NCBI GenBank assembly: GCA_021731185.1
Contig: JAKFXW010000034.1
Location: forward strand, 1 to 33,444
Source: Gallionellaceae bacterium
Lineage (GTDB): Bacteria > Pseudomonadota > Gammaproteobacteria > Burkholderiales > Gallionellaceae
Direction of reading: 5' to 3'
DNA length: 33,444 nt
In this document: positions 2,981 to 27,552 of the stretch, one piece after another
Layout: the number at the start of each line of letters is the position of its first letter
How positions within the stretch are numbered: position 1 is the first letter of the stretch
Program-made: the position numbers and the translations under genes
Notes under the pieces: model-generated
The model's database searches: none
The model's input: only the letters and a program-made list of their open reading frames with translations
What the model was told of the DNA's origin: nothing

Positions 2981-3229
2981 CAACTTATTATAATCGCCAG
3001 CAAGTTTATTTTTCATTCCCCCGTAGAACACTCGACATACAAATTTCCATCTGCCCACCGTGCTGTTTAAGTACCACCACAACAAGCCAGGAAAAAGCGG
3101 GGTCATGGTGTTTTATAAAAGTGCGGCTCTAACCTGCATTGACTCAAGCAGTGAGTGAGATTTTAGTGTAACCTTTTTAACTATAAATTTTAAGCTGCAC
3201 CAATACCCACTACTAAACAGAGGCATGCC

Positions 3230-4598: not shown

Positions 4599-4655
4599 GA
4601 TGATTCCTTTCGTTGATTAAACACAGTGGTAAATAATGTTTTACTTTTTTGTTAC

Positions 4656-4724
4656 TCAGATTACTTCGAATTCGATAAGAAAATGCACGAACACCGAATA
4701 CTAGATTGGAATAATTTCTATCAT
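4656..4724 (-). pseudogene. Decayed 5' remnant of a DUF2231-like membrane protein gene
   Basis: The ATG overlaps the cusA stop (ATGA) after an AGGAGA RBS. It reads MIEIIPI*YSVFVHFLIEFEVI*, resembling the MIEIIPNWHPxFVHF start I recall for DUF2231 proteins in copper clusters, with TAG at the Trp position. Confidence 0.55.
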
Positions 4725-7700
4725 TGTCCCTTCTCCTGTTTAAGATTTATTTTGTTGAAAAACTCGCGGTTTTTAACTAGTGCGTAAATTGCTGGGATTA
4801 CAATTAAGGTTAATATCGTGGATGAAATCATCCCGCCCACCATGGGTGCGGCGATGCGGCGCATAACTTCCGAGCCTGTGCCGCTGCTCCACATGATGGG
4901 TAGCAGGCCTGCCATAATCGCCACCACAGTCATCATTTTTGGGCGCACGCGCTCTACCGCGCCTTCCATCACGGCCTGGTATAAATCTGCTGGCGTGGGT
5001 TGCTGGCCGGAGCTTGCGCGTTGCTCGCACAATTTTTTCCATGCATGATCCAGATAAATCAGCATCACCACGCCTGTCTCGGCCGCCACGCCTGCCAGCG
5101 CAATGAAGCCGACTGCCACAGCGACGCTCATATTGTAATTCAGCAGCCACATCAGCCACACGCCACCGATCAGCGCAAACGGCACGGATAACATGACAAT
5201 CAATGTTTCTGTGATACGTCGGAAATTCAAATACAGCAGCAGGAAAATAATCAGCAGTGTTAACGGAATGACCATTTTTAATTTTGCAATGGCGCGTTCC
5301 ATGTATTCGAATTGCCCGCTCCACGTAACGTAATATCCGGGCGGAAATTTCACTTGTTCACGCACCGCTTGCTGCGCGTCGCGCACGTAGCTGCCGATGT
5401 CGCGCTCGCGAATATCAACATAGATATATGCCGCCAGTAGCGCATTTTCTGTGCGTATGGAAGGTGCTCCTTGCGTGATTTCAATTTTCACCAATTGCCC
5501 TAACGGGATCATTTCACCATTAGCAATCGGCACCAATACTTGGCTGGCGATCATGTGCGGGCTGTCACGCAACTCACGCGGATAGCGCACTGTCACCGCA
5601 AATCTTTCCAGCCCTTCCACGGTAGTGGTCACCACTTCGCCGCCGAGCGCGGTGGCAATCACTTGCTGCATTTCATCTATCGACACCCCGTAGCGCGCAA
5701 GCTGTAAGCGATCTGGCGCAATGTTCAAGTAATAACCACCAGTCACGCGCTCGGCATAGGCGCTGCTAGTGCCAGGAACTTGCTTGACCACGGCTTCTAC
5801 CTGCTTCGCGATTTCTTCTATGCCCGCTAAATTTTTACCGAAAACTTTAATACCTATCGGCGTGCGTATGCCAGTGGACAGCATATCAATGCGCGCTTTG
5901 ATCGGCATTGTCCAAGCATTCGACACACCGGGAAATTGTAAAGCCTGATCGAGTTCGGCAATCAGCTTGTCGGTGTTCATGCCTGCGCGCCATTCCGATT
6001 CTGGCTTGAGGTTAATTATCGTTTCAAACATTTCCAGCGGTGCCGGGTCGGTCGCCGTTTGGGCGCGACCAGCCTTGCCCATGACGGATGCTACTTCGGG
6101 AAAGCTCTTGATAATTTTGTCTTGCGTCTGCATCAGTTCGGCAGCTTTAGTCACTGACATGCCGGGTAATGAAGAAGGCATGTACAACAGTGTGCCCTCA
6201 TTTAAGGTCGGCATGAATTCGCTACCGAGTTTTACCGCCGGATAAATCGTCAGCACCATAATGCACAGCGCGAGTGCCAGCGTCGTTTTTTTCCACAGCA
6301 TGACCTGTTGAATAATTGGGCGATAGGATGAAATGAGAAATCGATTCACCGGATTTTTATTTTCTGGGATAATTTTTCCACGTATAAAAAGCAGCATCAG
6401 CACCGGCACCAGTGTCACTGAAAGCAATGCTGCGCCAGCCATGGAAAATGTTTTGGTAAAGGCTAAGGGCGAGAACAGCCGCCCTTCCTGCGCTTCTAAA
6501 GTAAAGACGGGCAGGAAAGAAACGGTAATGATAAGCAGCGAGAAAAATAAAGCAGGGCCAACTTCTTTGCAGGCGGCGAGTATGGCATTGACTCTGGCTT
6601 GGTCGGGCATTTCAAAGCTTGCTCCCTCACTTCCCATCTCCTCACCAGCCCCTCTTTTATCAGGGGAGGAATTTGGCTTTGCAGATGAGTGATCCAATCG
6701 TTCCAAATGTTTATGCGCGTTTTCTATCATCACAATAGCCGCATCCACCATTGCGCCTATAGCAATAGCAATCCCGCCTAGACTCATGATGTTGGAATTC
6801 ATACCCAGTGCATACATCAATATAAATGCGATCAATACGCCCACTGGCAACATCACAATTGCCACCAATGCGCTGCGTACATGCAACAAAAATACCATGC
6901 ACACCAACGCCACGATAATCGCCTCTTCTATTAGCGTTTTGTTCAAGGTTGCGATTGCGCGATGAATTAAATCCGAGCGATCATAAACCGCACGAATTTC
7001 AACACCACTCGGCAAGCCGCTGCTGATCTCATTTATTTTTGTTTTGACGTTTTCAATCACCGCCAACGCATTTTCTCCATAGCGCGCAATGGCAATTCCC
7101 GACACCGCCTCGCCTTCGCCATTTAATTCGGTCAAGCCGCGTCGCTCATCCGGCCCTAACTCGATGTGCGCCACATCGCGCAACAACACTGGCACGCCGC
7201 GATCACTTTTGAGCACCAGCATTTTCAGATCATCCACGCCGCGCAAATATCCCATGCCGCGCACCATGTATTCTGTTTCAGCCATCTCCACCACGCGCCC
7301 GCCAACATCGCGATTGCTGTCGCGAATAATCTGGCTGACTTGCGCCAACGGAATGCCATATGCCTGTAATTTACGCGGATCAACCACCACCTGATATTGT
7401 TTGACAAAGCCACCGATGCTGGCGACTTCTGCCACGCCATGCGCCTTGGTGAGCTGATAGCGCACGAACCAATCTTGAATAGCACGCAATTCAGCCAGCG
7501 TGTGCTGCGCGCTGATCACAACATATTGATAAACCCAGCCCACGCCCGTGGCATCGGGTCCTAGCGCGGGCGTTACGCCTGCCGGAAATCGTTGTGCGGC
7601 AGAATTTAAATATTCCAGCACACGCGAACGCGCCCAATAAATATCCGTGCCATCCTCAAAAATCACATACACAAAACTCACGCCAAAATTAGAAAAACCG

Positions 7701-7948
7701 CGCACCACTTTGGATTTGGGCACCGCCAACATAGCCGTGGTGAGTGGATAGGTGATTTGATCTTCGACCACTTGCGGGGCTTGGCCGGGGTATTCGGTAT
7801 AAATTATGACCTGCACATCAGATAAATCTGGAATGGCATCCAGCGGCGTTTTCACCAGCGCATACAGCCCCGCCCCGATGACAAACACGGTTCCCAGCAA
7901 CACCAAAAAAATGTTGCGTGCCGACCATTCAATAATCTTGGCTAACAT
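4721..7948 (-). CDS. cusA: CusA-family heavy-metal (Cu/Ag) RND efflux permease
   Basis: LDAIPDLSDVQVI, DIYWARSRVLEYL, GPDATGVGWVYQY, IGAMVDAAIVMIEN, EFMPTLNEG, TDPAPLEMFET and WTMPIKARIDM (the Cu-binding Met positions); 1075 aa. Confidence 0.95.
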   Translation of the reverse strand: MLAKIIEWSARNIFLVLLGTVFVIGAGLYALVKTPLDAIPDLSDVQVIIYTEYPGQAPQVVEDQITYPLTTAMLAVPKSKVVRGFSNFGVSFVYVIFEDGTDIYWARSRVLEYLNSAAQRFPAGVTPALGPDATGVGWVYQYVVISAQHTLAELRAIQDWFVRYQLTKAHGVAEVASIGGFVKQYQVVVDPRKLQAYGIPLAQVSQIIRDSNRDVGGRVVEMAETEYMVRGMGYLRGVDDLKMLVLKSDRGVPVLLRDVAHIELGPDERRGLTELNGEGEAVSGIAIARYGENALAVIENVKTKINEISSGLPSGVEIRAVYDRSDLIHRAIATLNKTLIEEAIIVALVCMVFLLHVRSALVAIVMLPVGVLIAFILMYALGMNSNIMSLGGIAIAIGAMVDAAIVMIENAHKHLERLDHSSAKPNSSPDKRGAGEEMGSEGASFEMPDQARVNAILAACKEVGPALFFSLLIITVSFLPVFTLEAQEGRLFSPLAFTKTFSMAGAALLSVTLVPVLMLLFIRGKIIPENKNPVNRFLISSYRPIIQQVMLWKKTTLALALCIMVLTIYPAVKLGSEFMPTLNEGTLLYMPSSLPGMSVTKAAELMQTQDKIIKSFPEVASVMGKAGRAQTATDPAPLEMFETIINLKPESEWRAGMNTDKLIAELDQALQFPGVSNAWTMPIKARIDMLSTGIRTPIGIKVFGKNLAGIEEIAKQVEAVVKQVPGTSSAYAERVTGGYYLNIAPDRLQLARYGVSIDEMQQVIATALGGEVVTTTVEGLERFAVTVRYPRELRDSPHMIASQVLVPIANGEMIPLGQLVKIEITQGAPSIRTENALLAAYIYVDIRERDIGSYVRDAQQAVREQVKFPPGYYVTWSGQFEYMERAIAKLKMVIPLTLLIIFLLLYLNFRRITETLIVMLSVPFALIGGVWLMWLLNYNMSVAVAVGFIALAGVAAETGVVMLIYLDHAWKKLCEQRASSGQQPTPADLYQAVMEGAVERVRPKMMTVVAIMAGLLPIMWSSGTGSEVMRRIAAPMVGGMISSTILTLIVIPAIYALVKNREFFNKINLKQEKGQ
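6633..6673 (-). repeat. Degenerate GC-rich palindrome in frame in the cusA cytoplasmic loop (NSSPDKRGAGEEMG)
   Basis: The minus strand reads ATTCCTCCCCTGATAAAAGAGGGGCTGGTGAGGAGATGGG, with a CCCCT/AGGGG stem and a CCTC/GAGG outer stem. The loop is longer than in typical CusA. Confidence 0.45.
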
Positions 7949-7950
7949 AT

Positions 7951-9579
7951 TCAGTGTCCTTTACGCGTGGGTGCGGGCTGTGCCACTTTGATTATTTTGG
8001 TCACCTCCCACACCCCTGGCTGGCGCTCGACAAACTCGAAATCAATTTCTTCGCCCGGCTTGATGCCTTTAATCAAGCCAGCATGAGCCAAATTAAAATT
8101 CATGCTCATCGCCGGCCAGCCCAATGCGGCAATGGCACTATGCGTTATGGTGACACTGCCAGCATCGGTCGCGTCCAAAATGCCCACACCGCGATGAGTT
8201 TGTGCGGGCTGCACGTCATTGTCCCCTTGTGGGGCTTTGTTGGCCGTGCGCGCGGGCGCACTCTGTTCGCCAAAGCCAGCGATAGCAGCTTTTAAATTGC
8301 TCTCTGCATCGATCAGAAAATTCGCACTGACCACGACTTTTTCGCCCTCAGCCACGCCTGCCAGAATTTCAATTTGATCGTCTGACTGTCTGCCCAATTT
8401 CACTACACGCGGTTCAAATTTTCCCGCACCCAAATCCACCAACACCAACTCACGCCGACCACTATAAATAATTGCAACATCCGGCACGACCAACACCGCT
8501 TGCTGATTATTTTTTATCGCCAACGTGACTTGTGCAAACATGCCGGGACGTAGCTGACCATCTGCATTATTCAATTCCAGCCGCACCTGCGCCGTGCGCG
8601 TTTGTTCATTAATCGTGGGATATATATAGCTGATGTGTGTTGTCAATTCTTTTCCGGGAAAGGCATCAATACTGACCTGCGCCGCTTGTCCGGTTTTGAG
8701 CAAAGCAATGTCCTGTTCGAACACATCGGCGATCACCCACAGCTTGGACAAATCGGCAATTTTGAACAGCGTCTCGCCTGGCATGAAACGCATACCTTTC
8801 AGCGCGAGCTTATCCAGCACGATACCGCGCACGGGCGAGCGGAAAGTAATCGTCCGTTTTATCTCGCCAGATTTATTCACATCAGATTTAGACACACCAG
8901 CTTCGCTTTGCGGGCGCAATGTTTCGGGCGCAACATCCCAATTTTTTAGCCTCGCCAAACTGGAATTCACCAGATTGTTCATGTTCGCCAGTGCTTCGGG
9001 CGAAGCATTTTTCATTGCTGCCGCGCCTTGCACGGCAATCTGATATTCGCGTTGCGCGGATAACAATTCCGGGCTGTACGCTTCAAACAGGGCTTGTCCG
9101 ACATGCACCTCAGCACCTGTTGTATTCACGTGTAACTGTTCGACCCAGCCTTCAAATTTTGGCGCGATGATGTGAATGCTGCGCTCGTTTGGCTCAACGC
9201 GACCAACGGCACGAACAGTTTGTGTGAACACCTGTTTGCCAACGACTATATTTTTTACACCTAGTTTTTGAATTTTTTCCACGCTGATTGTTACGTGCTG
9301 GCTGCTACCCGCCACCGACTCATCGCCTGCAAAAACTGGAATGTAATCCATGCCCATCGCATCTTTTTTAGGCACTGGCGAGGTGTCGGGCAAGCCCATC
9401 GGGTTGCGGTAAAACAGTGGTTTGCGCTCCGCCTGAGCAGTTACATTCTGTTGTGCCACATGGACGCTGCGCTGCATGCCCGACCAATAACCCAAGCCGA
9501 TCAATAGCAACGCCACCAAACCCCAAATAACTTTTCCTAATTTTGATTTCCCGTTCATATTTTTAGTGGCGAGTTTCAT
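7951..9579 (-). CDS. cusB: CusB-family RND periplasmic adaptor with an N-terminal Met-rich metal-binding motif and a C-terminal CusF-like domain
   Basis: YRNPMG...KKDAMGMDYIP, the MFP core (YSPELLSAQREY, IADLSKLWV, LRPGMF) and C-terminal HSAIAALGWPAMSM. Confidence 0.92.
   Translation of the reverse strand: MKLATKNMNGKSKLGKVIWGLVALLLIGLGYWSGMQRSVHVAQQNVTAQAERKPLFYRNPMGLPDTSPVPKKDAMGMDYIPVFAGDESVAGSSQHVTISVEKIQKLGVKNIVVGKQVFTQTVRAVGRVEPNERSIHIIAPKFEGWVEQLHVNTTGAEVHVGQALFEAYSPELLSAQREYQIAVQGAAAMKNASPEALANMNNLVNSSLARLKNWDVAPETLRPQSEAGVSKSDVNKSGEIKRTITFRSPVRGIVLDKLALKGMRFMPGETLFKIADLSKLWVIADVFEQDIALLKTGQAAQVSIDAFPGKELTTHISYIYPTINEQTRTAQVRLELNNADGQLRPGMFAQVTLAIKNNQQAVLVVPDVAIIYSGRRELVLVDLGAGKFEPRVVKLGRQSDDQIEILAGVAEGEKVVVSANFLIDAESNLKAAIAGFGEQSAPARTANKAPQGDNDVQPAQTHRGVGILDATDAGSVTITHSAIAALGWPAMSMNFNLAHAGLIKGIKPGEEIDFEFVERQPGVWEVTKIIKVAQPAPTRKGH
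8217..8235 (-). repeat. 18-19 bp palindromic element, copy 1 (in frame in the cusB linker, APQGDN)
   Basis: The reverse complement reads GCCCCACAAGGGGACAATG. Confidence 0.9.
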
Positions 9580-10880
9580 AATTCTTCTCCCAGCAACTTT
9601 TCAATTTGCGCCAGATTGGTTTGTGCGGCTACTTGCGCATTCAACACATCCAGCTTGGCTTGCAACAATTGGCGTTGTGCATCCAGCAAGGTGGCGAAAT
9701 CCACTTTTCCCGTTTGATAACCCGCCAGCGCTGCTTGCAACGTGGCTTCTGCTTGCGGCAACAAACTATTGCTGGCAAGATTTTCCGTGCGCTGCGCCGC
9801 CTTTAGGCTGAGTACTTGCTCGGCCAGATCGCCAATCAATTGTGTTGCCAATGCTTCTTTGCGTGATCTTGCTGCATTCAGCTCGGCACTGGCGGATCGC
9901 TCTTGTGCACGACGTGAGCCTTGCTGTAACGGAATATTGAATTCCGCCATGACACCCCACTCAGTAATTTGACCACCTTTTTGCACGGGCATCACGCCAA
10001 AAACAAAATCCGGATAACGATTTCGCAACACCAATTCATAATTTTTTTCTGCTGCAATCAGCTGGGCTTCAACAGCAAAAAGTTGTGGGTTTGTTAGCTG
10101 CAAGCGCTGTTCTAATTTAGCCTGCACCTGATGCGTTTTGTCCGGTATAACGCGCAACCTCTGCGGACCGGCCAGTGGCGCGGCGGGTGGACGACGCAAT
10201 AATGTATTCAATCGGGCGATAACATGATGATGTTCGGCATTCAGCATTACTTGTTCACGTTGCAATTGGGTTAATTCAATTTGTGCGCGTAGCACATCTT
10301 GTTGAACGGCCAGTCCGGTGGCGTAACGTGTTTGTGCGATGCGCTCTAGATTATTCAGTAACGCGAGCATTTCCTGCGTAATTTTCGTGCTGTGATGCAG
10401 TAAATAATATTGCGCGAAATTTATTTTTATTTTGCTTGCCAGATCAGCCCAAGTTTCAAAATTCAAACCCTGCGCCTGAGCAGATTCCGCCTCAGCCAAC
10501 TCGCGCCGCAAGCCACGCTTACCCCAGAACGGCACGGCTTGCATCAAAGTATAGTAGATCGTGCGGTTAGTCGTGTTGTTAGGATTGTTAATATCCATCG
10601 ACTGTGCCCGCAAGGTCGGATCAGGCAAAGCCGATGCCACATCAATACGCTGTGCTATCGCCTCGGCCTCAGCTCGACTGGCAGCCAATTCTGGATTGTG
10701 CTGCTGCGCCCAGTCCAGCAACTCTTCTACCTGTGCACCAGGAAATGGCTCGGCATAAGAATTCCAGACTGGCCACATAGTCAGGCTTGCTATGGATAGA
10801 CTCGTCATGCACAGGCTTAAATAAAAGCTAAAAAATTTCAGTACGGATATTTTATTGAATAAAAATTTTTTAATGTTCAT
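9576..10880 (-). CDS. TolC/CusC/CzcC-family outer membrane efflux protein
   Basis: OEP repeats (LPDP..., RYATG...QQDVLRAQ, YQTGKVDFATLLDAQ). It overlaps the cusB start by 4 nt. ATG 10880 follows GGAGA (the ORF track starts at TTG 10892). Confidence 0.9.
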   Translation of the reverse strand: MNIKKFLFNKISVLKFFSFYLSLCMTSLSIASLTMWPVWNSYAEPFPGAQVEELLDWAQQHNPELAASRAEAEAIAQRIDVASALPDPTLRAQSMDINNPNNTTNRTIYYTLMQAVPFWGKRGLRRELAEAESAQAQGLNFETWADLASKIKINFAQYYLLHHSTKITQEMLALLNNLERIAQTRYATGLAVQQDVLRAQIELTQLQREQVMLNAEHHHVIARLNTLLRRPPAAPLAGPQRLRVIPDKTHQVQAKLEQRLQLTNPQLFAVEAQLIAAEKNYELVLRNRYPDFVFGVMPVQKGGQITEWGVMAEFNIPLQQGSRRAQERSASAELNAARSRKEALATQLIGDLAEQVLSLKAAQRTENLASNSLLPQAEATLQAALAGYQTGKVDFATLLDAQRQLLQAKLDVLNAQVAAQTNLAQIEKLLGEEL

Positions 10881-10896
10881 CGCTTTCTCCAACTCA

Positions 10897-15782: not shown

Positions 15783-15801
15783 GCCCCACAAGGGGACAAT
15801 G
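15783..15801 (+). repeat. 18-19 bp palindromic element, copy 2 (intergenic, 4 nt after the methyltransferase stop)
   Basis: GCCCCACAAGGGGACAATG, identical to copy 1. Confidence 0.9.
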
Positions 15802-15870
15802 TAAAAATTACACGCCGCATTTTCAGGGTTTTCTTCTTGAATATCGTTCAGTGTCTGCGCCCAATCTCAA

Positions 15871-16919: not shown

Positions 16920-18269
16920 TTAGTTCGTCAGGCGGTCAATGACAATCAGAGTACGTGTAATCAGCTCATCCATTTCAGCTTCGCTGATGATGTACGGTGG
17001 GATGAAGTATAAAGTATTACCTATCGGGCGCAACAGTAGCTGCTGTTCCAGTGCCAGTGCAAAGCAGCGTTGAGCAAAGTTAGGCTTTGTTTGTTCAACT
17101 TCAAACGCCCAGATCATGCCGATGTTGCGGAAATGTTTAACGTGCGGATGTGCGCGTAAGGGTTGCGCAATGCGATTGAAATAGGCAGCTTTATTTTTAT
17201 TTTCTGCCAGCACATTGTCTTGCTCAAAAATATCCAGCGTGGCCAATGCGGCGCGGCAGGCCAACGGATTGCCTGTGTAGGAATGCGAGTGCAAAAAACC
17301 GCGTGCAATTTCATCCGCATAAAATGCCTGGTAGATTTGACCGCGAGTCATTACAACAGACAGCGGCAAATAGCCACCGGTAATTCCCTTGGACAAGCAC
17401 AGAAAGTCAGGCGTAATGCCGTTCATTTGTCCAATACCAGCCGAGGCTTGCTCACACGCAAACATCGTCCCCGTGCGCCCCATTCCCACCGCAATTTCAT
17501 CGGCAATTAAATGCACGTTAAATTGGTCGCATAATGCACGCGCACGCGCCAGATACACCGGGTGATACATGGCCATGCCAGCCGCACCTTGCACCAGTGG
17601 CTCAATAATAAAGGCGGCAATATTTTGATGATGCTGTTGCAAATAATCTTCAAGCTGCACGGCGCAGCGCAAGGCGTAGTCATGCGAACTTTCTCCAGCT
17701 TCAGCTAGACGACTATCCGGACTGGGCACGGTGGCGTGCTGCTTGAGCAGCGCGCCGTAAGCATCTTTAAATAAGGCAACATCGGTGACCGAGAGCGCGC
17801 CCAGCGTCTCGCCGTGATAACTGTTTTGCAGGCTGATAAAATTAGTTTTGTCGGGATAACCACAATTACGCCAATAGTGAGCACTCATTTTTAGTGCGAT
17901 TTCTACAGCGGATGCGCCATCTGAAGCATAAAAGCAATGTCCCAAACCCGTCGGCGCAAGTTTCGCCAAGCGTTCTGAAAGCGTGATCACAGGCTCATGC
18001 GTGAAGCCCGCCAGCATGACGTGTTCGAGTTGACCCAGTTGTTCAACAATGGCGGCATTAATGCGTGGATTGCAATGTCCGAATAGATTCACCCACCACG
18101 AACTCACCGCATCCAGATAGCGCACGCCATTAAAATCAACCAGCCAGGCTCCGTCGCCGCGTTGAATAGGGATGAGCGGCAATGTCTCATGCTGCTTCAT
18201 CTGTGTGCAAGGATGCCAGACCGCTGCACGGGAGCGGTGAAGCAGGTCAAGGTTCGATGTTTTGGTCAT
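16920..18269 (-). CDS. bioA: Adenosylmethionine-8-amino-7-oxononanoate transaminase
   Basis: WHPCTQM, DAVSSWWVNLFGH, SYHGET, IADEIAVGMGRTG, LSKGITGGYLPL (PLP Lys) and HSHSYTGNPLAC. Confidence 0.95.
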   Translation of the reverse strand: MTKTSNLDLLHRSRAAVWHPCTQMKQHETLPLIPIQRGDGAWLVDFNGVRYLDAVSSWWVNLFGHCNPRINAAIVEQLGQLEHVMLAGFTHEPVITLSERLAKLAPTGLGHCFYASDGASAVEIALKMSAHYWRNCGYPDKTNFISLQNSYHGETLGALSVTDVALFKDAYGALLKQHATVPSPDSRLAEAGESSHDYALRCAVQLEDYLQQHHQNIAAFIIEPLVQGAAGMAMYHPVYLARARALCDQFNVHLIADEIAVGMGRTGTMFACEQASAGIGQMNGITPDFLCLSKGITGGYLPLSVVMTRGQIYQAFYADEIARGFLHSHSYTGNPLACRAALATLDIFEQDNVLAENKNKAAYFNRIAQPLRAHPHVKHFRNIGMIWAFEVEQTKPNFAQRCFALALEQQLLLRPIGNTLYFIPPYIISEAEMDELITRTLIVIDRLTN

Positions 18270-18282
18270 GGCTTAAGGGTAC

Positions 18283-18380
18283 TTAAAAAATAAAGGAAAC
18301 AACGGCATATCCGGCTTTGCTTTGCACTAAATCTGCATCTTTAGCGTCATCGGAATACAGCCAGCCGCTAACCGCTAATT
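18283..18380 (-). pseudogene. Possible 3' remnant of an outer-membrane protein gene truncated by the repeat cluster
   Basis: Reads LAVSGWLYSDDAKDADLVQSKAGYAVVSFIF*, ending in a beta-signal-like terminal Phe, 13 nt upstream of the bioA ATG. The sequence upstream of it is repeat DNA. Confidence 0.25.
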
Positions 18381-18735
18381 CTAGTTTCCGATAAAAAGGA
18401 GCACAAGGCGGCAAGGATGAGGCGACGGTGCGTGGTTGTTGCCGATTCATCGGCTTTACAACCACGGTCTACCCCTTGCGGGTGAAGACAGTACATTTGA
18501 GTACGGCTATAACCAATGACTTGCCCAGCGTTAACCAGCGGCTTATGTCACCGTATTTTGGTGACTTAGCCGATTGGCTATGCAAAGCCTTTTGCTGGGT
18601 TATAACCAGCCACTTGGTTGTCGTCCTTTGACAACCTAGTGGAATGGCTAGTAGTTTCATCAGTCAGATGGCTAGTTGTTTCACTCAGGAGCCGAAGACG
18701 AAGGTAACACAGTGATCGTTTTTATCGGGAATTGG
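18381..18735. mobile_element. Composite MITE-like cluster with nested palindromic elements
   Basis: Terminal inverted repeats CTAGTTTCCGATAAAAAGGAGCAC (18381-18404) and the reverse complement of 18712-18735 CCAATTCCCGATAAAAACGATCAC match at 19/24. Inside are hairpin 18431-18466 and three related ~50-bp palindromes (18508-18676). Confidence 0.7.
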
Positions 18736-18924: not shown

Positions 18925-19025
18925 CTCCCGCGTGAATACCTTCTGGATGGTAACGCATCATGTAATAATTCGTGTACCATAAAGCTGAATTTATAGAAAT
19001 GTCCTTGTCCTTTAGCGGAGAGTAT

Positions 19026-20423
19026 ATGACTGGGCTATCTGGAGTATTGAAAACAGACGCTGACGTAGCAGCCGCGCAGGATAAGCTGCGTAGGAGCTTG
19101 CTAGTGTTCGCCTGCGCACTGATGATCTGCGCAGTCATGCTGTGGCTGGCAATTTATTGGATGATGGGTCTGAAATATTCCGCCAATGTGCCGCTGACCT
19201 ATCAAATCATTTCCGTCACGTCACTGGTGATTTACCTCAAAAACGGCAATTTCGTCATTTTTCGTTTTGTGCAGCTCAGCCTATTTTTGTTCGCACCCTT
19301 TATTATGCAGTGGAGCATTGGTAGCTCGGTCACTTCCAGCGGACTCATGCTGTGGGCGTTGCTGTCCCCGATAGCTGCCATAGTAGTAGCAGGTTGGCGT
19401 GAATCTATTCCGTGGTTTGTGGCTTATATCGTATTAACAATTTTGACTGGGTTTTTTGATTACTTTTTAGGTGTAGGCGAACATGATGGCGTTTCAATGA
19501 AAGCTGTGGGCGTATTTTTTGCGATTAACTTCACGGCGATGTCGTCTATTCTATATATACTGTTGCGCTACTTCGCTTTAGAGACAGAAAAAATAAGACA
19601 GCAACTAAGCCAGCAACATCAACTACTCACGGATGCACAAAATCGATCGGAACGCCTCTTACTCAACGTGCTGCCAGCACACATTGCACTCCGCCTGAAA
19701 GACAAACAGGGCTTGATTGCAGACGCGCATCCTGACGTGACCGTGATGTTTGCCGACATCGTTAATTTTACCCAACTGGCCGAACAATTGCCGCCAGAAC
19801 GCATGGTCGATTTACTTAATACCATATTTTCCTGGCTGGATTCTTTCTCGGGAAAACATGGTCTGGAAAAAATCAAAACCATAGGCGATGCCTACATGGT
19901 GGCGGGCGGTCTTACCAACAGTCCGGATCACGTCAGCAAGGTAGCCGACATGGCGCTGGAAATTCGCAGCTTTATAGCCACCCATCCTGAGCTATCTCGA
20001 TATAACCTCGGCATGCACATCGGCATCGCCACTGGCCCGGTGGTGGCGGGTGTCATCGGCACCAAGCGATTCATTTATGACCTGTGGGGCGATACTGTCA
20101 ACACTGCCAGTCGCCTGACTGCTGATGCAGAGGTGGATCAAATTCTGGTCGACAAAAATACCTATGCGCGCTTGCGTGCGGATTATCAATTTGATCAAGC
20201 CAAGATGACTTATTTAAAAGGCAAAGGTGAAATTGCAGTTTATGGATTACTTAAAAAAGTCAGTGAGCCGCATAAAAAAGCTGTCGCTGCCCCGCAGCAG
20301 CAGAAGGTAAACACTAATAAATTTCCGTCATACGATCCATCAAGTGCGCAACAGTTAATAAAATCAAATCCCAATAAATTATCTGCGTTTGATCCGACAA
20401 GTACGCAGATACTTAAGGATTAA
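19026..20423 (+). CDS. Membrane-bound class III adenylate cyclase (multi-TM N-terminus, coiled coil, catalytic domain)
   Basis: FADIVNFT, EKIKTIGDAYMV, IGIATGPVVAGVIG and YDLWGDTVNTASRL. Lys/Asp at the specificity positions suggests ATP. ATG 19026 follows GGAG (the ORF track starts at 18972). Confidence 0.9.
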   Translation: MTGLSGVLKTDADVAAAQDKLRRSLLVFACALMICAVMLWLAIYWMMGLKYSANVPLTYQIISVTSLVIYLKNGNFVIFRFVQLSLFLFAPFIMQWSIGSSVTSSGLMLWALLSPIAAIVVAGWRESIPWFVAYIVLTILTGFFDYFLGVGEHDGVSMKAVGVFFAINFTAMSSILYILLRYFALETEKIRQQLSQQHQLLTDAQNRSERLLLNVLPAHIALRLKDKQGLIADAHPDVTVMFADIVNFTQLAEQLPPERMVDLLNTIFSWLDSFSGKHGLEKIKTIGDAYMVAGGLTNSPDHVSKVADMALEIRSFIATHPELSRYNLGMHIGIATGPVVAGVIGTKRFIYDLWGDTVNTASRLTADAEVDQILVDKNTYARLRADYQFDQAKMTYLKGKGEIAVYGLLKKVSEPHKKAVAAPQQQKVNTNKFPSYDPSSAQQLIKSNPNKLSAFDPTSTQILKD

Positions 20424-20467: not shown

Positions 20468-23290
20468 CTACGCACTGGTTTTTTCTTCAAACAACTGTTT
20501 CCACAACTCCAACACTGGCTGTACATCCAGATGCTCTTTGCTGATGCGGCTGACAGGCTCATTATTCAGGCGCATTTTGTGTTGCAGCGCGCGCTCCGCT
20601 CGGTATATGTTGCAAACTGCCTGAACCATATCCTGATTAATTAATTTTAATTCTGCCGCACGATTGAGCAGCGCGATATTGCCGCTATTTTTCGTTAGCT
20701 CGGAATATTGATGTGCGTACGCCAACACTAAAAATTGCACGATGAATTCGATGTCGACCATGCCACCATGGTCATGTTTGATGTCGAACAAATCACTATC
20801 ATTGCGATGTGCATCCAGCATTTTATGGCGCATTTTTATGACCTCTGCGCGCAGGGTATTTATATCGCGTGGCTTGCATAATATCGCGGTACGTATCACT
20901 TCAAATTTCACGCCGATTTGTTCATCGCCCGCACAAAATCTGGCTCGGGTCAGAGCCTGATGTTCCCATACCCAAGCATCCTTGTTCTGGTATTGTTCAA
21001 ATGCTTCAATCGAACTGACCAACAAACCACTGGCTCCATTGGGACGCAAACGCAAGTCCGTTTCATATAATCGTCCCGAGGCGGTGTAGCTGCTCAACAC
21101 TGAATTGATGCGTTGCGCTAAGCGTGCATAGATTTGTGCTGCATCGGGATGGTCGTCTTGATATAGAAAAATAATGTCCAGATCGGCAGCATAGCCCAAT
21201 TCGCGCCCGCCCAGCTTGCCATAGGCGACGATAGAAAATTTCGGTGGGTCAGCTGCCGTGGAACCAGCTGTCATGGACCCAGCTGTCATGGAATGGGTGG
21301 CTGACATATCACGCCAGCAGATTTGTAAAACATGGTGCAGAATTAAATCTGCCAGATCACTTAAATGATCGCTCAGCGTTTCCAGCGTCAGCAAGTTTTG
21401 TATATCCATCGCCAGCAGATGAAAAATCTGGCTGTGTTGAAAGCGCCGCAGCGCATCCATTTGCTGCTCGATGTCGTCAGCATGTTGGGTCAACTCAGCT
21501 TGTAAATCGGCACTTAAGCTGACCCAATCCGGCGCACGATAAATTTCGCGGGCATCTAATAATTCATCCAGCAGCATGGGATGCTGCACTAAATATTCAC
21601 TGGCCCATTCGCTGGCGCTGGCGAGATTTGTGAGTCGCGGCAGCACCTGTGGGTACTCCGCCAGAAAAGACAAATAAGACGCACGGCGGCTGATGTTTTC
21701 CAGCAACTTAAGCACGCGCAGCAGTGCTTGATCGGGGTTGTATTGGGTGGCACACAGCGTAATAAATTGCGGAATTAATTTATCTAGCCGGCGTTGACTG
21801 GGAGCGGGTAACTGGCGGTAGCGCCCGCTCTGACGAATTTGCACGAGCCGTTCTGCCAGTGCAGAAGAATCATCAGCATAGCCAAACTTATCCAGTGCAG
21901 CGGCCACCTCTTGTGCCTGCATATTGGCATGCCATAAATCGCTGCTTGCAATGTCACTGCCTGCAATGTCGCTAGTCAGCTCCTGCTGGGTACTGAAAAT
22001 CAGCGCGAATTGTTCACTGACTAATTGCCGGTGTGTATTTAATTGTGCCAACAGTGCGGCATAATCGGAGTAGCCCATACCGAGTGCGAGAATTTCCTGG
22101 TCGACCGGATTGTCAGGTATATCCTGCGTTTGCTGATCATCCAGATATTGCAAGCGATGTTCCAGATTACGCAAAAACACATAGGCCTGACTCAAGCTAG
22201 CAACGATTTCCGGTGCTAACATACCCTTCTCAGCCAGGCGTTGTAATACTTGCAGCGTGGGGCGTGTACGTAAACCTATATTCTGTCCACCGCGTATAAG
22301 TTGAAAGACTTGTGCGATGAATTCGATTTCTCGTATGCCGCCGGGACCCAGCTTGATATTGTTTTGTCGATCACGCCGCTGCACTTCGCGTTGAATTTGT
22401 ATGTGCAATTTGCGCATGGAATCGAACGCACTGAAGTCCAGATATTTGCGAAAAATAAATGGTTGGGTAAGTTGAGTTAATTCTTGTGTGGTCGTGCTAG
22501 CAATGGGTGAAACCACGCGCGCTTTAATCCAAGCGTAGCGCTCCCATTCACGTCCTTGGGTAACCAGATATTCTTCCAGCGCGGCCAAACTCACTACCAG
22601 TGGGCCGCTGTCGCCATAAGGCCGCAGGCGCATATCCACGCGAAAGACAAAACCCTCAGCAGTTATTTCATCAATCAGATTAATAATGCGTTTGCCTAGC
22701 TTGCTGAAAAATTCGTGGTTGCTGATGGATTGATAGTGGGTAGCAGCGTTGTCCCACAAGGGGACAATGTCATCTGCACCCCCCGTTTGGCCATCTTCAG
22801 GGTAGACAAAAATCAGATCAATATCGGACGAGACATTAAGTTCCTCGCCGCCCAGTTTTCCCATGCCGATGACTAGCAGTGTTTGAATTGCGCCTGTGCT
22901 GGCACTGCGCGGTTGCCCATGTTGTTCAACTAACGACTGCATCACTCGGGTTTGAGACTGCTGTATTACGAGCTCAGCCAGCGCAGTCATAGTGCGCACG
23001 ACTTCTGCTAAATCCGCTTGCCCGCCCAGATCGCGTGTGAGCAGTTGCAGCATGACGCGCTTACGCAGTTGCCGCAGTGCAACAGATAACGAGGCTTCAT
23101 CGCTGATAGGCATGTCAGCCAGCCATTGCCGCATTTGTGCGACAGAGCAGGGTTGCAAGTAGTCGGTACGAAGCGAGGTTAAGAGCACTTCGTTGCTGGC
23201 GAGCAAACGTTGTACATAGCGGCTGCAGTGCAGCGTACGCTGCAAAGCCGCTTCAAAATCAAGTGCAGAAGCGGATGTCTGGGTATTCAT
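20468..23290 (-). CDS. glnE: Bifunctional glutamine synthetase adenylyltransferase/adenylyl-removing enzyme
   Basis: Two NT domains: MGKLGGEELNVSSDIDLIF...RVDMRLRPYG and YGKLGGRELGYAADLDIIF...ETDLRLRPNG. Also GGIREIEF and GGMVDIEF. Confidence 0.96.
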   Translation of the reverse strand: MNTQTSASALDFEAALQRTLHCSRYVQRLLASNEVLLTSLRTDYLQPCSVAQMRQWLADMPISDEASLSVALRQLRKRVMLQLLTRDLGGQADLAEVVRTMTALAELVIQQSQTRVMQSLVEQHGQPRSASTGAIQTLLVIGMGKLGGEELNVSSDIDLIFVYPEDGQTGGADDIVPLWDNAATHYQSISNHEFFSKLGKRIINLIDEITAEGFVFRVDMRLRPYGDSGPLVVSLAALEEYLVTQGREWERYAWIKARVVSPIASTTTQELTQLTQPFIFRKYLDFSAFDSMRKLHIQIQREVQRRDRQNNIKLGPGGIREIEFIAQVFQLIRGGQNIGLRTRPTLQVLQRLAEKGMLAPEIVASLSQAYVFLRNLEHRLQYLDDQQTQDIPDNPVDQEILALGMGYSDYAALLAQLNTHRQLVSEQFALIFSTQQELTSDIAGSDIASSDLWHANMQAQEVAAALDKFGYADDSSALAERLVQIRQSGRYRQLPAPSQRRLDKLIPQFITLCATQYNPDQALLRVLKLLENISRRASYLSFLAEYPQVLPRLTNLASASEWASEYLVQHPMLLDELLDAREIYRAPDWVSLSADLQAELTQHADDIEQQMDALRRFQHSQIFHLLAMDIQNLLTLETLSDHLSDLADLILHHVLQICWRDMSATHSMTAGSMTAGSTAADPPKFSIVAYGKLGGRELGYAADLDIIFLYQDDHPDAAQIYARLAQRINSVLSSYTASGRLYETDLRLRPNGASGLLVSSIEAFEQYQNKDAWVWEHQALTRARFCAGDEQIGVKFEVIRTAILCKPRDINTLRAEVIKMRHKMLDAHRNDSDLFDIKHDHGGMVDIEFIVQFLVLAYAHQYSELTKNSGNIALLNRAAELKLINQDMVQAVCNIYRAERALQHKMRLNNEPVSRISKEHLDVQPVLELWKQLFEEKTSA
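21250..21294. repeat. 3 x 15-bp tandem repeat in glnE (SMTAG-SMTAG-STAA)
   Basis: CAGCTGCCGTGGAAC / CAGCTGTCATGGACC / CAGCTGTCATGGAAT. Confidence 0.85.
22751..22769 (+). repeat. 18-19 bp palindromic element, copy 3 (antisense within glnE, in frame, DIVPLWD)
   Basis: GTCCCACAAGGGGACAATG, with a TTGTCCC/GGGACAA stem at 22749-22767. Confidence 0.9.
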
Positions 23291-23442: not shown

Positions 23443-26400
23443 ATGCCAAAAAAAATCCTGAAAAATTCATTGTTAAGCTTCAAAATTCTGGCTCGCATAT
23501 TGGTAGCTGGCATAGTTTTGTTGAGCGCAGTGATATGGCTGTGGTCGAAATTCTGGCTGTTTCCGGACATTGAACACTATCACGAAGATATCACAACGAT
23601 AGCCAGCCAAGTAGCGAATCAACCGATAACAATAGGAAAAATTCAGGCGGATTGGCACGGCATTCGTCCGCGCCTGATTTTTAGCGATGTGCGTATGCTG
23701 GATAATAAAGGCCACACGACCTTGTCATTTCAGCGCATAGAAAACGTATTGTCATGGAGAACACTAATCACTAGGAAGGTCAGGTTACATAGCCTGGAAA
23801 TTCAAAATCCAGATTTGCATATTCGGCGCGATCTGCTAGGAAAAATACACGTCGCCAACTTTTCCCTGAAAAGTGAAGCAGCCGAACAGGTCACCGATAG
23901 CAATGTCCCACAAGGGGACAATGTACTGGATATGATTTTGCATCCGCCGCGCATAGTGGTCAGCGATGCGCGCATCACCTGGAAAGACGAGCTCAATGCC
24001 GCACCCGAGCTACTTTTTGAGCATGTAAATTTACTGATTGATAATGATGAATCGCGCCATCGCTTCGCGGTGCGCGCCCAACCTCCGGCGCAGCTGTCTA
24101 CGAATCTGGATGTGCGCGGTGACTTTTATGGCGACAGTTTCGCTGACCCAAAAGCGTGGTATGGACAGGCGTACACCCACCTGAATTACGCCAACATTCC
24201 GGCATGGGAACCTTGGCTGCCTACGGTAAGCGTGCTTAAACGTGGCAAGGGTGCGGTGCGGGGTTGGATGGATGTACGGGCAGGACAGGTGTTCAGAATG
24301 ACCATGGATGTTGCTTTGTCCGGTATTAGCACACAATTAGCAGATGATGTATTGCCACTTGAAATACTGACTATGCGCGGTCGCCTGGTCTGGGAAAACG
24401 TCAGTAACGGATTTGAAATTGCGTTGCGAAAATTTTCACTGAAGCTGAACAACGGCCTCGATGTGCAACCAGTTGATTTTTACCTGCGTCTAGCGAAAGC
24501 CACAGATACTCAGCCAGCCAGCGGCGAGGTGCGCGCCGACTCGTTGGAATTGATGGGACTGGTCAGCCTAGCCAGCTTTCTGCCTTTAAATTCTGACTCC
24601 AGGCAGCAGCTGATAGACTTTGCTCCAAGCGGTCAGGTAACGAAATTACAAGCTAAATGGAGCGGGAATTTTGACCGATTGCAGAATTTAGATATTCAAG
24701 CGAAATTTGACAATCTCGCCTTGCGGCGCGTGGGGGGCATCCCTGGGTTTTCTGGTTTAAGCGGACAAATCAACGGCAATGAAGATGCTGGTACATTAAC
24801 ATTACGCTCAAATAATTTGAAGCTGGATGCGCCACAAATTATGCCCGAACCATTACAGCTTGATTCGTTAACCGCCAAGACCAGTTGGCAGAAAAATGAT
24901 CTGGGTTATGCCATTCAATACGAGAATGTGTCCGTTGAGAATCAGGATGCAGCGGGCATTATTTCAGGTAGCTTTCAAACTTTAGCCGACGGCCCTGGTG
25001 AGATTGATCTAAAAGTGAATTTAACGCGGGCACTGGTGCAGCGCACGTCGCGCTACATTCCATTGGTGGCATTAAAAAGTGCGGGCAATGCCTGGGTGAA
25101 GCAGGCTTTGCTGGATGGGCAGTCCAATGATTTCAGTTTGATACTGCGCGGCAATTTAAAAAAGTTTCCATTTGATGAAAAAGATTCTGGCCTCTTTCAG
25201 ATTAAAGCCAGCGCTATTGGCGCAGCGGTAAAATATCATCCAGACTGGCCAGTCATAGATCAAGGGGTAGCAAAATTTACTATTCAAGGCCGTCGTCTCA
25301 AAACCTTTGTCTCGACGGCGGTAACTATGGGCGGGCATTTGCAAAATGTGAGTGTGGTGATGCCGGATATTACTAGCCCTAATTTAATGTTGAAAATTCG
25401 TGGTGAGGCTAAGGGTAAAACATCGCACTTTCTAGATTTTATTCAACAAAGTCCGGTGCGTGGATACATCGATGAGGCGAGTGATAACATCTCTACACAG
25501 GGCAGCGGGAAGCTAATTTTGTCGTTGGATATTCCCTTGCCTGGTCGGACGACCAACTCAAACAGCAATGAATTGCCTGATGTGGCTAATACTGCTGCGG
25601 CCAGTACGCCTGTAGCAATTGCGCCTACTGCCAGAAAAATTACTGCCAGAAAAATTGTTGCAAGCACTCCAGTCAAGGTGGCGGGCAATTATCATTTCAT
25701 TGAAAATGATGTGACATTGCCCGGTGGCATTGTTGTGCAGCAGGCCAGTGGTCATCTATTGTTTACAGAATCCTCATTGCGTACAAAAAATGTAACTGGA
25801 CAAGTTTTTGGTGGCCCAGCTTCAATAGTGCTCAAACGTAAGCTGGGCAAGCCGCTAGTTGTCAAGGCGCAAGGGGTGACACACATGGATCAATTACGGC
25901 ATAGTGTGTCCCATCCGATATTAAATTATCTGCATGGCAGCATTCCGTGGGAAGCTAATATTACGGTGCAACCCAAGCGTATCAATGTGCAGGTCACCTC
26001 AAATATGACTGGAGTTCAATTTGACATGCCGGTTCCTTTTACTAAACAGGCCAGCGAGCAGATTCCATTAGCCTTTGAGATGCAACGCACAGCCAGCCAA
26101 GAGACGCTCAGCCTGCAATATGGCAAGTTGCTGGATGCAAAATTAGTTCGCTACAAAAAGAAGGGGGAGTGGTTGGTACATGGCGGCAATATTCATTTTG
26201 GCGCATTACCGGAGCAGGGTTCGAGCGCGCAGGGTTCAAGCGCGGGTGTGATCCAGCCGGGTATATGGATGACTGGCGCTGTGCCGGAATTGGCCGTGCA
26301 GGGATGGGGCAAATTGCTCGAGTCCACGAGTGGCGATGGCGCGCTGAATTTATCCTCCTTTAATTTTAAGGGGGCAGATTTACTAATTAAAAAAATAAGT

Positions 26401-27552
26401 GGCTTGGGTTATGCGCTGAACGATGTACATATCAAGGCCAGCACGCCAGGCAAAATAATCTTGGCTAAAGTGGCTGCACCTCAAATCAATGGCGAAGTGA
26501 AATGGCAACCGCAGGGCAAGGGCAGATTAACAGTGCGATTAACATCACTGAATCTGCAAAAAGCCCCCGATTTACTCAGCGACCAGCCTGCTCGATCTTT
26601 AACAGAAACACCGCCAGGTCAGACCGACGAGCAGCCTGCCGCAGACAGCACACAGACAGGTACTGCGTTGCCAAGCGATCCGAGTATGCTGGCCATCACG
26701 GGAAAGCAAACCTTCCCAACGTTTGATTTGGCGGTGGACAATCTTACCTGGAATAAAATTTCCTGGGGTAAACTTGAGTTATTGTTGGGCAAACAGGTTA
26801 ACGGGTCGGAGCAAATCTGGCTGGCTGAACGCATACATGTCACCACACCGGAAGGCGTGATGGCAGGAGATGGCAAATGGATAATCACACCCGATAGTCA
26901 GCAAACACAAATAAATATTGGTCTGGATATTTTTAATTCCGGCAGACTGCTATCCCGGCTGGGATACCCCGATAGCGTGAAAGATGGCGCAGGTCGGCTC
27001 GAAGGAAATTTTTATTGGCAGGGCGGGCCGCAAGCATTTGGCGTTGCGGTGTTGGATGGCGCGCTGAAGTTGAATGTGGGCAAGGGGCAATTTCTGCAAG
27101 TCGATCCCGGTATAGGCAAATTGCTCAGTGTATTCAGTTTACAGGCTTTACCCAAGCGCATTACACTGGATTTTACGGACGTGTTTAGTAAAGGGTTTAA
27201 GTTTGACCAAATCAGCAGTACCGCGCAAATCAGGCAAGGCTTAATGCAAATTGATGATTTCAAAATTGAAGGATCAGCCGCCAAAGTGACCATGCGTGGA
27301 CAAGTGGATTTAATTCAGGAAACGCAGGATTTACGTGTGCGTATCCTGCCCACCATCAGCGATACCGTTTCCCTATTGGGATTTGCCGCAGGCCCTGCAG
27401 TGGGTATGGGAGTATTACTGGCTAATAAAATTTTTAGAGATCCCCTCGATAAGTTAGTATCATTTGAATACAATGTAGACGGAACATGGGCAGCACCCAA
27501 TGTAGTTAAGCTGGGTAGCAGTCGAGAGGCAGAAGGGGTGACGGGACATTGA
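23443..27552 (+). CDS. yhdP: YhdP (TIGR02099, AsmA-like) phospholipid transport family protein
   Basis: 1369 aa with an N-terminal TM anchor, C-terminal GKLLSVFSLQALPKRITLDFTDVFSKGFKFD and YNVDGTWAAP. Conserved position between glnE and nitrilase-tldD. Confidence 0.9.
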   Translation: MPKKILKNSLLSFKILARILVAGIVLLSAVIWLWSKFWLFPDIEHYHEDITTIASQVANQPITIGKIQADWHGIRPRLIFSDVRMLDNKGHTTLSFQRIENVLSWRTLITRKVRLHSLEIQNPDLHIRRDLLGKIHVANFSLKSEAAEQVTDSNVPQGDNVLDMILHPPRIVVSDARITWKDELNAAPELLFEHVNLLIDNDESRHRFAVRAQPPAQLSTNLDVRGDFYGDSFADPKAWYGQAYTHLNYANIPAWEPWLPTVSVLKRGKGAVRGWMDVRAGQVFRMTMDVALSGISTQLADDVLPLEILTMRGRLVWENVSNGFEIALRKFSLKLNNGLDVQPVDFYLRLAKATDTQPASGEVRADSLELMGLVSLASFLPLNSDSRQQLIDFAPSGQVTKLQAKWSGNFDRLQNLDIQAKFDNLALRRVGGIPGFSGLSGQINGNEDAGTLTLRSNNLKLDAPQIMPEPLQLDSLTAKTSWQKNDLGYAIQYENVSVENQDAAGIISGSFQTLADGPGEIDLKVNLTRALVQRTSRYIPLVALKSAGNAWVKQALLDGQSNDFSLILRGNLKKFPFDEKDSGLFQIKASAIGAAVKYHPDWPVIDQGVAKFTIQGRRLKTFVSTAVTMGGHLQNVSVVMPDITSPNLMLKIRGEAKGKTSHFLDFIQQSPVRGYIDEASDNISTQGSGKLILSLDIPLPGRTTNSNSNELPDVANTAAASTPVAIAPTARKITARKIVASTPVKVAGNYHFIENDVTLPGGIVVQQASGHLLFTESSLRTKNVTGQVFGGPASIVLKRKLGKPLVVKAQGVTHMDQLRHSVSHPILNYLHGSIPWEANITVQPKRINVQVTSNMTGVQFDMPVPFTKQASEQIPLAFEMQRTASQETLSLQYGKLLDAKLVRYKKKGEWLVHGGNIHFGALPEQGSSAQGSSAGVIQPGIWMTGAVPELAVQGWGKLLESTSGDGALNLSSFNFKGADLLIKKISGLGYALNDVHIKASTPGKIILAKVAAPQINGEVKWQPQGKGRLTVRLTSLNLQKAPDLLSDQPARSLTETPPGQTDEQPAADSTQTGTALPSDPSMLAITGKQTFPTFDLAVDNLTWNKISWGKLELLLGKQVNGSEQIWLAERIHVTTPEGVMAGDGKWIITPDSQQTQINIGLDIFNSGRLLSRLGYPDSVKDGAGRLEGNFYWQGGPQAFGVAVLDGALKLNVGKGQFLQVDPGIGKLLSVFSLQALPKRITLDFTDVFSKGFKFDQISSTAQIRQGLMQIDDFKIEGSAAKVTMRGQVDLIQETQDLRVRILPTISDTVSLLGFAAGPAVGMGVLLANKIFRDPLDKLVSFEYNVDGTWAAPNVVKLGSSREAEGVTGH
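23905..23923 (+). repeat. 18-19 bp palindromic element, copy 4 (in frame in yhdP, VPQGDNV)
   Basis: GTCCCACAAGGGGACAATG, with a CAATGT direct repeat at 23901-23906 and 23919-23924. Confidence 0.9.
25626..25655 (+). repeat. Perfect 2 x 15-bp tandem duplication in yhdP (TARKI-TARKI)
   Basis: TACTGCCAGAAAAAT occurs twice. Confidence 0.9.
26215..26244 (+). repeat. 2 x 15-bp tandem duplication in yhdP (QGSSA-QGSSA)
   Basis: CAGGGTTCGAGCGCG / CAGGGTTCAAGCGCG (14/15). Confidence 0.85.

Follow-up and report, generated by a model that had tools for sequence, protein, structure and literature searches.

Nested gene-less hairpin elements inside a MITE of a Gallionellaceae genome, three of them members of one family of small repeats

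The SDRs of Nostocaceae, reportedly described by Elhai et al. in 2008, are said to be gene-less repeats of 21-27 nt with compensatory changes in their stems, which nest in themselves and in MITEs and insert precisely. We know of no enzyme that has been identified as moving them. PMC4390886 cites that description (Genome Res 18:1484) and mentions SDR5. SMR-A of Haloquadratum walsbyi is directed at palindromes belonging to other mobile elements, and its mobilisation has been called enigmatic; a 52-bp PATE with a single hairpin appears to be mobile in Haloquadratum (PMC3119063). CGTC repeats are also described as being without a dedicated transposase (PMC3733652). REP elements are served by TnpA-REP, which requires a mismatch in the stem, cuts at C|T with little further specificity, acts at a distance of more than 400 nt to the hairpin and produces tandem units in vitro, and whose integration has been proposed to require a REP-carrying target (PMC3333891). 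Changes in the guide yield cuts at CC, CA, GA or GT (PMC8266576).

Our analysis concerns one locus within a window of 33,444 nucleotides, which is the whole stretch of DNA under study and belongs to a 1.9-Mb assembly that is 91.8% complete (G000). Between bioA and a divergently oriented cyclase gene, positions 18379-18735 hold what is almost certainly a real nest of small mobile elements. The stretch consists of a 124-bp MITE with terminal inverted repeats, here called O, and of four gene-less hairpin elements, namely one element R and three copies (A, B and C) of a family here called T. The features are the following:

16920 to 18269, minus strand: flanking gene bioA, given as context (TIGR00508, 545 bits against a cut-off of 405).
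18376 to 18378, plus strand: left 3-bp target duplication (TAA) of MITE O, identified from the duplicated 3-mers around complete O copies.
18379 to 18427, plus strand: left part of MITE O with the left terminal inverted repeat (the empty O is 124 bp long; alignments).
18428 to 18484, plus strand: element R, 57 bp, inserted in O without duplication (empty versus filled O sites).
18485 to 18509, plus strand: middle part of MITE O, whose last base is the A of the A|G site of the T elements.
18510 to 18531, plus strand: copy C of the T family, from the 5' arm to the loop (the reconstructed body is intact elsewhere).
18532 to 18588, plus strand: copy B of the T family, 57 nt with an 8-nt B-type tail, lying in the loop of C (model match of 44.8 bits).
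18589 to 18602, plus strand: copy C, remaining loop and inner 3' arm.
18603 to 18662, plus strand: copy A of the T family, 60 nt with a 12-nt A-type tail, at an A|G of the 3' arm of C.
18663 to 18674, plus strand: copy C, outer 3' arm.
18675 to 18687, plus strand: 13-nt A-type tail that closes copy C (the layout is alike at the congener locus L385, there without A and B).
18688 to 18735, plus strand: right part of MITE O, of which the final 2 bases and the right duplication are missing (contigs of related populations join across at 18730).
18972 to 20423, plus strand: flanking adenylate/guanylate cyclase gene, divergent from bioA, given as context (PF00211, E-value 5e-54).

R and the three T copies inserted precisely and without target duplication. 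O came first, C followed, and then B entered the loop of C and A its 3' arm. R is a hairpin with a variable top stem and a small terminal hairpin, and its boundary is ambiguous by 1 nt. A, B and R fold better than their shuffled versions on both strands (z-scores from -3.1 to -5.5), and copy A scores 87.2 bits with the covariance model of the T family, of whose training set it is a member. Between 18200 and 19050, the Rfam covariance models returned one chance match (E-value 1.3, 15 bits against a gathering score of 70). A promoter and terminator scan returned none of either.

An earlier note on this DNA had read the locus as palindromic elements inserted into each other. All the strings and coordinates that it quoted are present, and the terminal inverted repeats of the stack do match at 19 of 24 positions. 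Its nesting of B and A within C also stands, as the joined pieces of C make a 48-nt body with five exact, uninterrupted copies in the genome. The ends of the elements needed correction: T copies start at TAACCA and end 8-13 nt past TGGCTA, so that the unit, which had been given as about 50 bp without its 3' tail, is 54-61 nt long. The host, which had been taken for an RPE-like element, is instead a MITE with terminal inverted repeats and a 3-bp duplication, and the list of open reading frames bears out that there is no transposase in the window. The two absences that the note had itself set against its reading, of stand-alone copies and of an intact C-type element, are contradicted, because copies are dispersed through the genome and the five intact C bodies exist. 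Elsewhere in the window, we observed a near-perfect 30-bp inverted repeat with a 4-nt loop (24-87), a run of open reading frames on the minus strand that by eye resembles a Cus-type metal efflux operon (4227-10892), and a 9-bp tandem repeat at 4462-4524, within the smallest frame of that run.

O has 29 complete copies in the genome, of which 20 are 124 bp long and the others carry inserts or a deletion. Identical 3-mers flank 28 of the 29, and in 27 the 3-mer is TAA or TTA. Being short, non-coding, bounded by terminal inverted repeats and associated with a target duplication, O has the features of a MITE. It most likely moves by an ordinary DDE transposase, as we infer from the terminal repeats and the duplication; no cognate IS with the same terminal inverted repeats was found in G000, in the examined loci or in 10 loci picked from 30 matches, in a type of assembly (metagenome-assembled genomes) that often misses IS. 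A supposed likeness to ERIC was dropped after blastn returned no match in 5,426 Escherichia coli genomes, nor in plasmids.

The empty and filled states of the insertion sites can be counted directly. In pattern counts that include partial copies, the numbers of empty and filled cases are 36 and 9 for the R site of O, 28 and 12 for the T site of O, 6 and 8 for the loop site of C, and 10 and 2 for the arm site of C. R-like copies number 19 in the genome. Most nesting intermediates are present in G000 or in a congener: O with R and one T (contig C172 of G000), O with R and a C that carries B (contig C94 of G000), and O with R and an intact C (congener locus L385). C-type bodies of G000 are nearly always followed by a different tail and then by a second tail. 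This arrangement could indicate that a fourth T copy was deleted under C in G000, but L385 has the same single-tail layout as the C of the window, so that such a loss is no more than a possibility.

Contigs assembled from other sequencing runs show that stack-bearing and stack-free states both exist among related populations, since some bridge the locus and others enter O. In run X12, one contig joins 18299 to 18730 through 63 letters of other sequence, the shorter of its sides being 100 letters long. Run X13 has similar but short joints, and the joints to 18730 in runs X6 and X8, with a shorter side of 21-22 letters, are weak alone. In runs X9 and X10, contigs pass from bioA into the left end of O. 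Run X1 is possibly the window's own sample and hence not independent. In the congener genome G002, bioA and the cyclase gene lie on different contigs and O is absent beside bioA. No RNA data set was listed as a carrier, which has no bearing on expression.

The T unit is composed of a 48-nt hairpin body and of a 3' tail of 12-13 nt in A and C and of 8 nt in B. A length of 54-61 nt is found in 209 of 218 uninterrupted copies, and in 165 of the 218 the length is divisible by three. With a covariance model built from 72 distinct 60-nt copies, we obtained 62 matches in G000 (E-value up to 0.1), so that the dispersal expected by the earlier note is evident. Covariation analysis also confirmed the compensatory stem variation that the note had pointed out: pairing is kept at 97.2%, two-sided changes occur in 10 of 17 pairs, with 179 cells as compared to 50.8 when shuffled, and slid controls collapse. 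We take this as strong support for the predicted hairpin rather than as a probability, because the copies are related and the structure was chosen by the analyst. In a set of 99 distinct 48-nt bodies, G-T pairs in the variable stem number 64 and A-C pairs 8, which identifies the strand with TAACCA as the folding strand. The same bodies keep three mismatches, A-C in 95, T-T in 97 and G-A or A-G in 92, the last of which swaps sides among bodies. Mismatches that are kept while pairs vary suggest that a protein reads them.

T is widespread in Gallionellaceae. Its model matches 11 of 151 genomes of the order, which are G000, all three other members of the family and seven genomes of other families, and the T pattern is present in 13 of 35 genomes of the genus. 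A scan of genome collections returned at least 121 stretches, with named records mostly from Gallionella, Sideroxydans and Ferrigenium. Of 151 family genomes, 57 had matches to the pattern of the B-tail, some of these being chance matches in genes. We found no match in annotated plasmids and phages, and three viral contigs carry T. On viral contig L355, the first ATG of a 445-aa open reading frame comes from a T copy.

In-frame coding copies, for which the earlier note had proposed a test, also occur in relatives. Sixteen copies lie deep inside long open reading frames, and the 10 T-containing frames that we scanned all encode recognisable proteins, among them MetRS (twice), CysRS, MutS, UvrD, MoeA and a Mur ligase. 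An in-frame T adds 18-20 residues to these housekeeping proteins. G000 has only one such candidate, a putative N-terminal extension on contig C103. Locus L281 (approximately 3010-3290) has an array of five T-like copies of 56 nt each, with a sixth, degenerate one behind them; a short-chain dehydrogenase-like frame on the opposite strand takes its predicted start and its first residues from this array.

Other small repeats were seen along the way. Two more 51-nt families with a hairpin and a tail, U1 and U2, sit at fixed points inside R (contigs C9, C94, C121 and C149 of G000; loci L385 and L214); U2 is itself entered by T (L111). In L234 (approximately 1103-1152, minus strand) and in L242 (approximately 2281-2330), the frame of an IS1111-type transposase contains a U-type element. 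A mini-hairpin repeat of 18 nt is more abundant than T, at 258 pattern matches in G000, and its copies lie within one another and within a T loop (contig C31). In the window it occurs at 8216-8233 (minus strand), 15785-15802, 22753-22770 and 23907-23924, and is in frame in the open reading frames 7951-9579, 20468-23290 and 23443-27552.

The ends of T are precise in 71 target classes of the A-tail (174 copies) and 24 of the B-tail (44 copies). T has neither terminal inverted repeats nor a target duplication; its 8-13-nt tail is asymmetric, and at most one base is ambiguous. At the left end (N|TAACC), the preceding base is A in 132, T in 23, G in 5 and C in 5 of 166 cases, with one altered end. 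Among the 48 A-tail copies that were not picked by a pattern ending in G, the target is A|G in 43, G|G in 4 and A|A in 1. All 44 B-tail junctions read C followed by a pyrimidine, and the base before the cut is T in 26, C in 12, A in 5 and G in 1, mostly giving T|Y. The two tail types thus enter different sites, A|G for the A-tail and N|Y for the B-tail. Targets are nearly fixed only at positions -1 and +1, and homology between T and target is 0-1 base in most cases. For the B-tail, both empty-site variants that bear on a replacement of the base after the cut are common.

On these features, T can be set against the described systems. Like the SDRs of Nostocaceae, T is very small, gene-less, variable in a compensatory way in its stems, nested in itself, resident in MITEs and precisely inserted; unlike them, it is 54-61 nt long as compared to a reported 21-27 nt, betaproteobacterial, and endowed with two tails that follow different target rules. 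This comparison covers the general features of the SDRs. T resembles SMR-A of H. walsbyi in being without duplication and in being found inside other mobile palindromes, and differs from it since SMR-A is about 110 bp long and has terminal inverted repeats (PMC3119063). With PATEs it shares the lack of terminal inverted repeats and of duplication and a near-terminal palindrome; PATEs, however, match IS605-type ends and have a 4-6-base target, whereas T follows a 1-2-base rule and matched no IS in the loci scanned (PMC3119063). The imperfect hairpin with a kept mismatch and one active strand, the C|Y junction, the tandem amplification and the in-frame copies are all reminiscent of REP, BIME and REPIN elements (PMC3333891, PMC8266576, PMC6006769, PMC3733652, PMC3116915). 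Unlike REPs, T has no 5' GTAG or GTGG on the folding strand and forms no inverted doublets; no RAYT gene in the scanned loci has it as its flanking repeat, and it inserts into GTAG REPs. MITEs have terminal repeats and a duplication, and T has neither. O itself is of ERIC-like size for a bacterial MITE and differs from ERIC, Correia and RUP in its 3-bp TWA duplication instead of TA, while the position of T in frame inside housekeeping proteins recalls the RPEs of Rickettsia (PMC3184786, PMC10969869). On the features tested, T belongs to none of REPs, PATEs, MITEs, SMR-A and attC sites. We found no description of the family in the full-text literature searched (PMC2884548 included), which holds main texts and few subscription journals.

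The earlier note had proposed that targeting depends on structure, and the data support this in part. When empty sites were rebuilt in G000, 22 of 30 had copies elsewhere, as compared to 389 of 2000 intergenic AG controls. B-tail sites fold well (-8.5 versus -4.5 kcal/mol when shuffled, n = 29), and of the 44 B insertions 16 lie in T loops, 16 in a mixed class made largely of REP-like hairpins and TAACC-like sites, six behind another B and six elsewhere. On the other side, A-tail sites in G000 fold over 50 nt at -3.5 kcal/mol (n = 23), no better than intergenic controls (-4.4, n = 600), although in other genomes they reach -6.8 versus -5.0 when shuffled.

It is possible, though somewhat unlikely, that the preference for palindromes is only apparent: T may enter any A|G or N|Y and survive in dispensable repeats, and the filled repeats may then multiply as units. 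This explanation bears on targeting only and is compatible with any of the enzymes considered below. The poor folding of the A-tail sites of G000 is in its favour, and several of the 16 classes into which the 37 T sites of this genome fall have clearly been amplified with their host. Because hosts multiply after being filled, counts of sites overstate the number of independent events. However, 4 of the 16 classes (16 of the 37 sites) lie inside T itself, which makes up only about 2% of the non-ORF DNA of G000; the B-tail sites do fold well; and, from one genome to another, identical positions of T and O hold different T variants. We also observed that the outer-stem variant of A-tail copies is associated with the type of target, while inner stems differ (best chi-squared P-value 4e-7 over 165 tests on 157 collapsed copies), and that the commonest A-tail outer-stem variant fills the foot of T in 0 of 19 cases. 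This association may reflect either history or guidance.

Tandem copies inform on how T may move. B-type arrays of unit length run head to tail in loci L281, L282, L284 and L285. A scan for A-type junctions returned 10 metagenome stretches, nine of which are real T tandems: five have identical neighbours, one is a duplicated composite of A with B, different copies are joined in two, and another is truncated by a contig end. Junctions between the tail and TAACCA are exact, with at most one base of flanking homology, and unit-length repeats with so little homology would fit a circular intermediate or a rolling-circle step. No circle-type joint was present among the joints listed in eight runs, in contigs that drop rare forms.

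We tentatively favour, as a possibility short of a firm expectation, that T moves as a single-stranded circle, cut and rejoined in trans by a putative Y1-HUH enzyme similar to RAYT or TnpA. The hairpin would be the protein-binding site, the end of the tail would be joined to the foot of the hairpin to give a circle, and the circle would be inserted at a one- or two-base site. Repeats would be favoured as targets because they expose folded single strands and tolerate insertions, and the filled MITEs would multiply as units through their own, separate DDE-type transposase. Single-strand HUH chemistry appears to fit best because of the small size, the exact ends, the lack of duplication, the single folding strand with fixed mismatches, the 1-2-base target and the unit-length tandems. 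The next base after the A-tail is G in 47 of the 48 unselected cases, which is C|T on the other strand; the tail junction of T thus reads C|Y and may in part fit the cleavage at C|T by TnpA-REP. Several features argue against an HUH enzyme. The A-tail and the B-tail have their C|Y junction on opposite strands, the 5' foot of the folding strand has no GTAG (GTAG or GTTG lies 3'), and the targets of the B-tail are mostly T|Y and not C|T. A crude and weak test by GC skew detected no lagging-strand bias (12:17 and 30:29).

Linkage to a Y1 or RAYT transposase, which the earlier note had proposed to test, was absent from the loci scanned. In favour of an HUH enzyme, RAYT-family matches are present in G000 and in all five T-carrying family genomes tested. 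T is a terminal element of the gene in none of 87 Y1 loci, nine of which hold ordinary nested copies, and the T model detected no terminal T in 85 Y1, IS110 and reverse transcriptase loci, nor any match at the ends of the scanned IS200-type loci, L001 included. No autonomous element bounded by T occurs among the 121 loci from the genome-collection scan, seven odd ones of which were read closely, and the small genes between neighbouring T copies, read by eye, include no recurring nuclease. Across genomes, RAYT is found in 32 of the 35 genomes of the genus as compared to 13 with T, so that most RAYT genomes have no T; the RAYT type of contig C85 occurs in nine of the 35 and does not track T. In the single-contig genome G093, the sole RAYT matches are two adjacent pieces, apparently of one split gene. 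The TnpB domain matched in 2 of 29 T-carrying genomes. None of the enzyme families tested (RAYT, IS110, reverse transcriptase and TnpB) tracks T across genomes.

Some of these genes are worth recording in their own right. In G000, a reverse transcriptase (L002, 16-1308, contig C75) lies directly upstream of a RAYT gene and has its best scores, below cut-off, with the Drt4 and Drt3b defence models. The Pfam Y1_Tnp search did not detect a RAYT-like protein whose gene contains repeat-like DNA (L292, contig C85, 4722-5306). On contig C97, a tnpA of IS200 type (L001) is followed or preceded closely by a tnpB-like frame and lies beside phage-like frames; its ends are not T-like.

The failure to find a partner gene in the loci scanned would also be expected if no transposase were dedicated to T. 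The folded T may be captured by template switching at stalled hairpins, through the replication or repair machinery of the host or a small orphan nuclease, and recombination may reshuffle the copies, as the chimeric copies on contigs C4, C31 and C189 would suggest; unrelated families (T, R, U and the 18-mer) moreover share the same habit in one genome. We consider this explanation unlikely, as 95 target classes show ends of single-base precision, the base that follows varies with the type of tail, the mismatches are kept while pairs vary, which suggests recognition by a protein, and target homology is 0-1 base in most cases.

Even less likely is a route through RNA, reportedly proposed for the SDRs of cyanobacteria, in which a reverse transcriptase acting in trans would copy T from its folded RNA. 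The G-T wobbles and the T-rich or CTTG loops on one strand would fit RNA folding, and tandem B arrays follow stop codons in sense orientation (L282 and L285). Nevertheless, a crude test detected no significant bias in gene orientation (18 sense and 29 antisense for the A-tail, P-value 0.14; 6 and 7 for the B-tail), only 2 of 5 T-carrying genomes have RVT_1 and both single-contig genomes are without it, and the reverse transcriptase of G000 is closest to defence-type DRT models, below cut-off.

T may alternatively be a miniature donor for an IS110/IS1111 recombinase acting in trans with a bridge or seek RNA, which we regard as improbable. The lack of duplication and the CT dinucleotide at one junction are in line with such an enzyme, and the reverse strand of the A-tail is loosely similar to IS1111-type left ends in L024, L226 and L234. 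The 95 target classes, however, share 1-2 bases and no word of guide length, the polarity expected at the second junction of a staggered 2-base core is seen in 0 of 166 cases, and a double-stranded circle does not form easily from 54-60 bp. Over-cut-off IS110 matches occur in 8 of 17 T-carrying genomes and in none of the contigs of G000, whose assembly is 91.8% complete. A lead in L234, where a B copy lies beside an IS1111-type gene, was dropped, as the copy is about 1.1 kb from the end of the element. ISPpu10 does use a target stem-loop, which is a further point for this family of enzymes (bioRxiv 10.64898/2026.03.19.712850).

It is very improbable that an integron integrase moves T as a stand-alone attC-like site: the size of T, the TAAC at one end, the variable terminal stem and one B copy near an IS1111-type element in an apparent cassette array (L234) recall attC, yet the boundary lies 5' of TAAC and not at the integrase crossover G|TT, and the empty sites give the whole TAACC to T, so that the junctions contradict it.

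T is of a kind already known but mechanistically unexplained, that of small mobile repeats similar to SDRs and SMR-A. A bolder possibility, which we hold doubtful, is that T represents an undescribed minimal class of mobile DNA, in which a hairpin and a tail would close as a 54-60-nt single-stranded dumbbell, the tail and outer stem would set the insertion site, and the element would parasitise mobile palindromes, moved by an enzyme or host process newly linked to transposition and shared with look-alikes in other phyla. If so, swapping 8-12 bases would retarget T, because the tail and the outer stem would set its site.

How gene-less repeats of fewer than 100 bases move without target duplication is an old open question, common to SDRs, SMRs, CGTC repeats and RPEs. 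T makes it testable, because its ends are exact, its joined form is defined, it has one folding strand on which mismatches are fixed, and its tails are swapped in nature along with a change of target. Should the enzyme be found, scarless integration of a donor of 60 bases would be of use in practice. For the Gallionellaceae themselves, nests of T break assemblies, and the element is abundant in a family that has cultured members.
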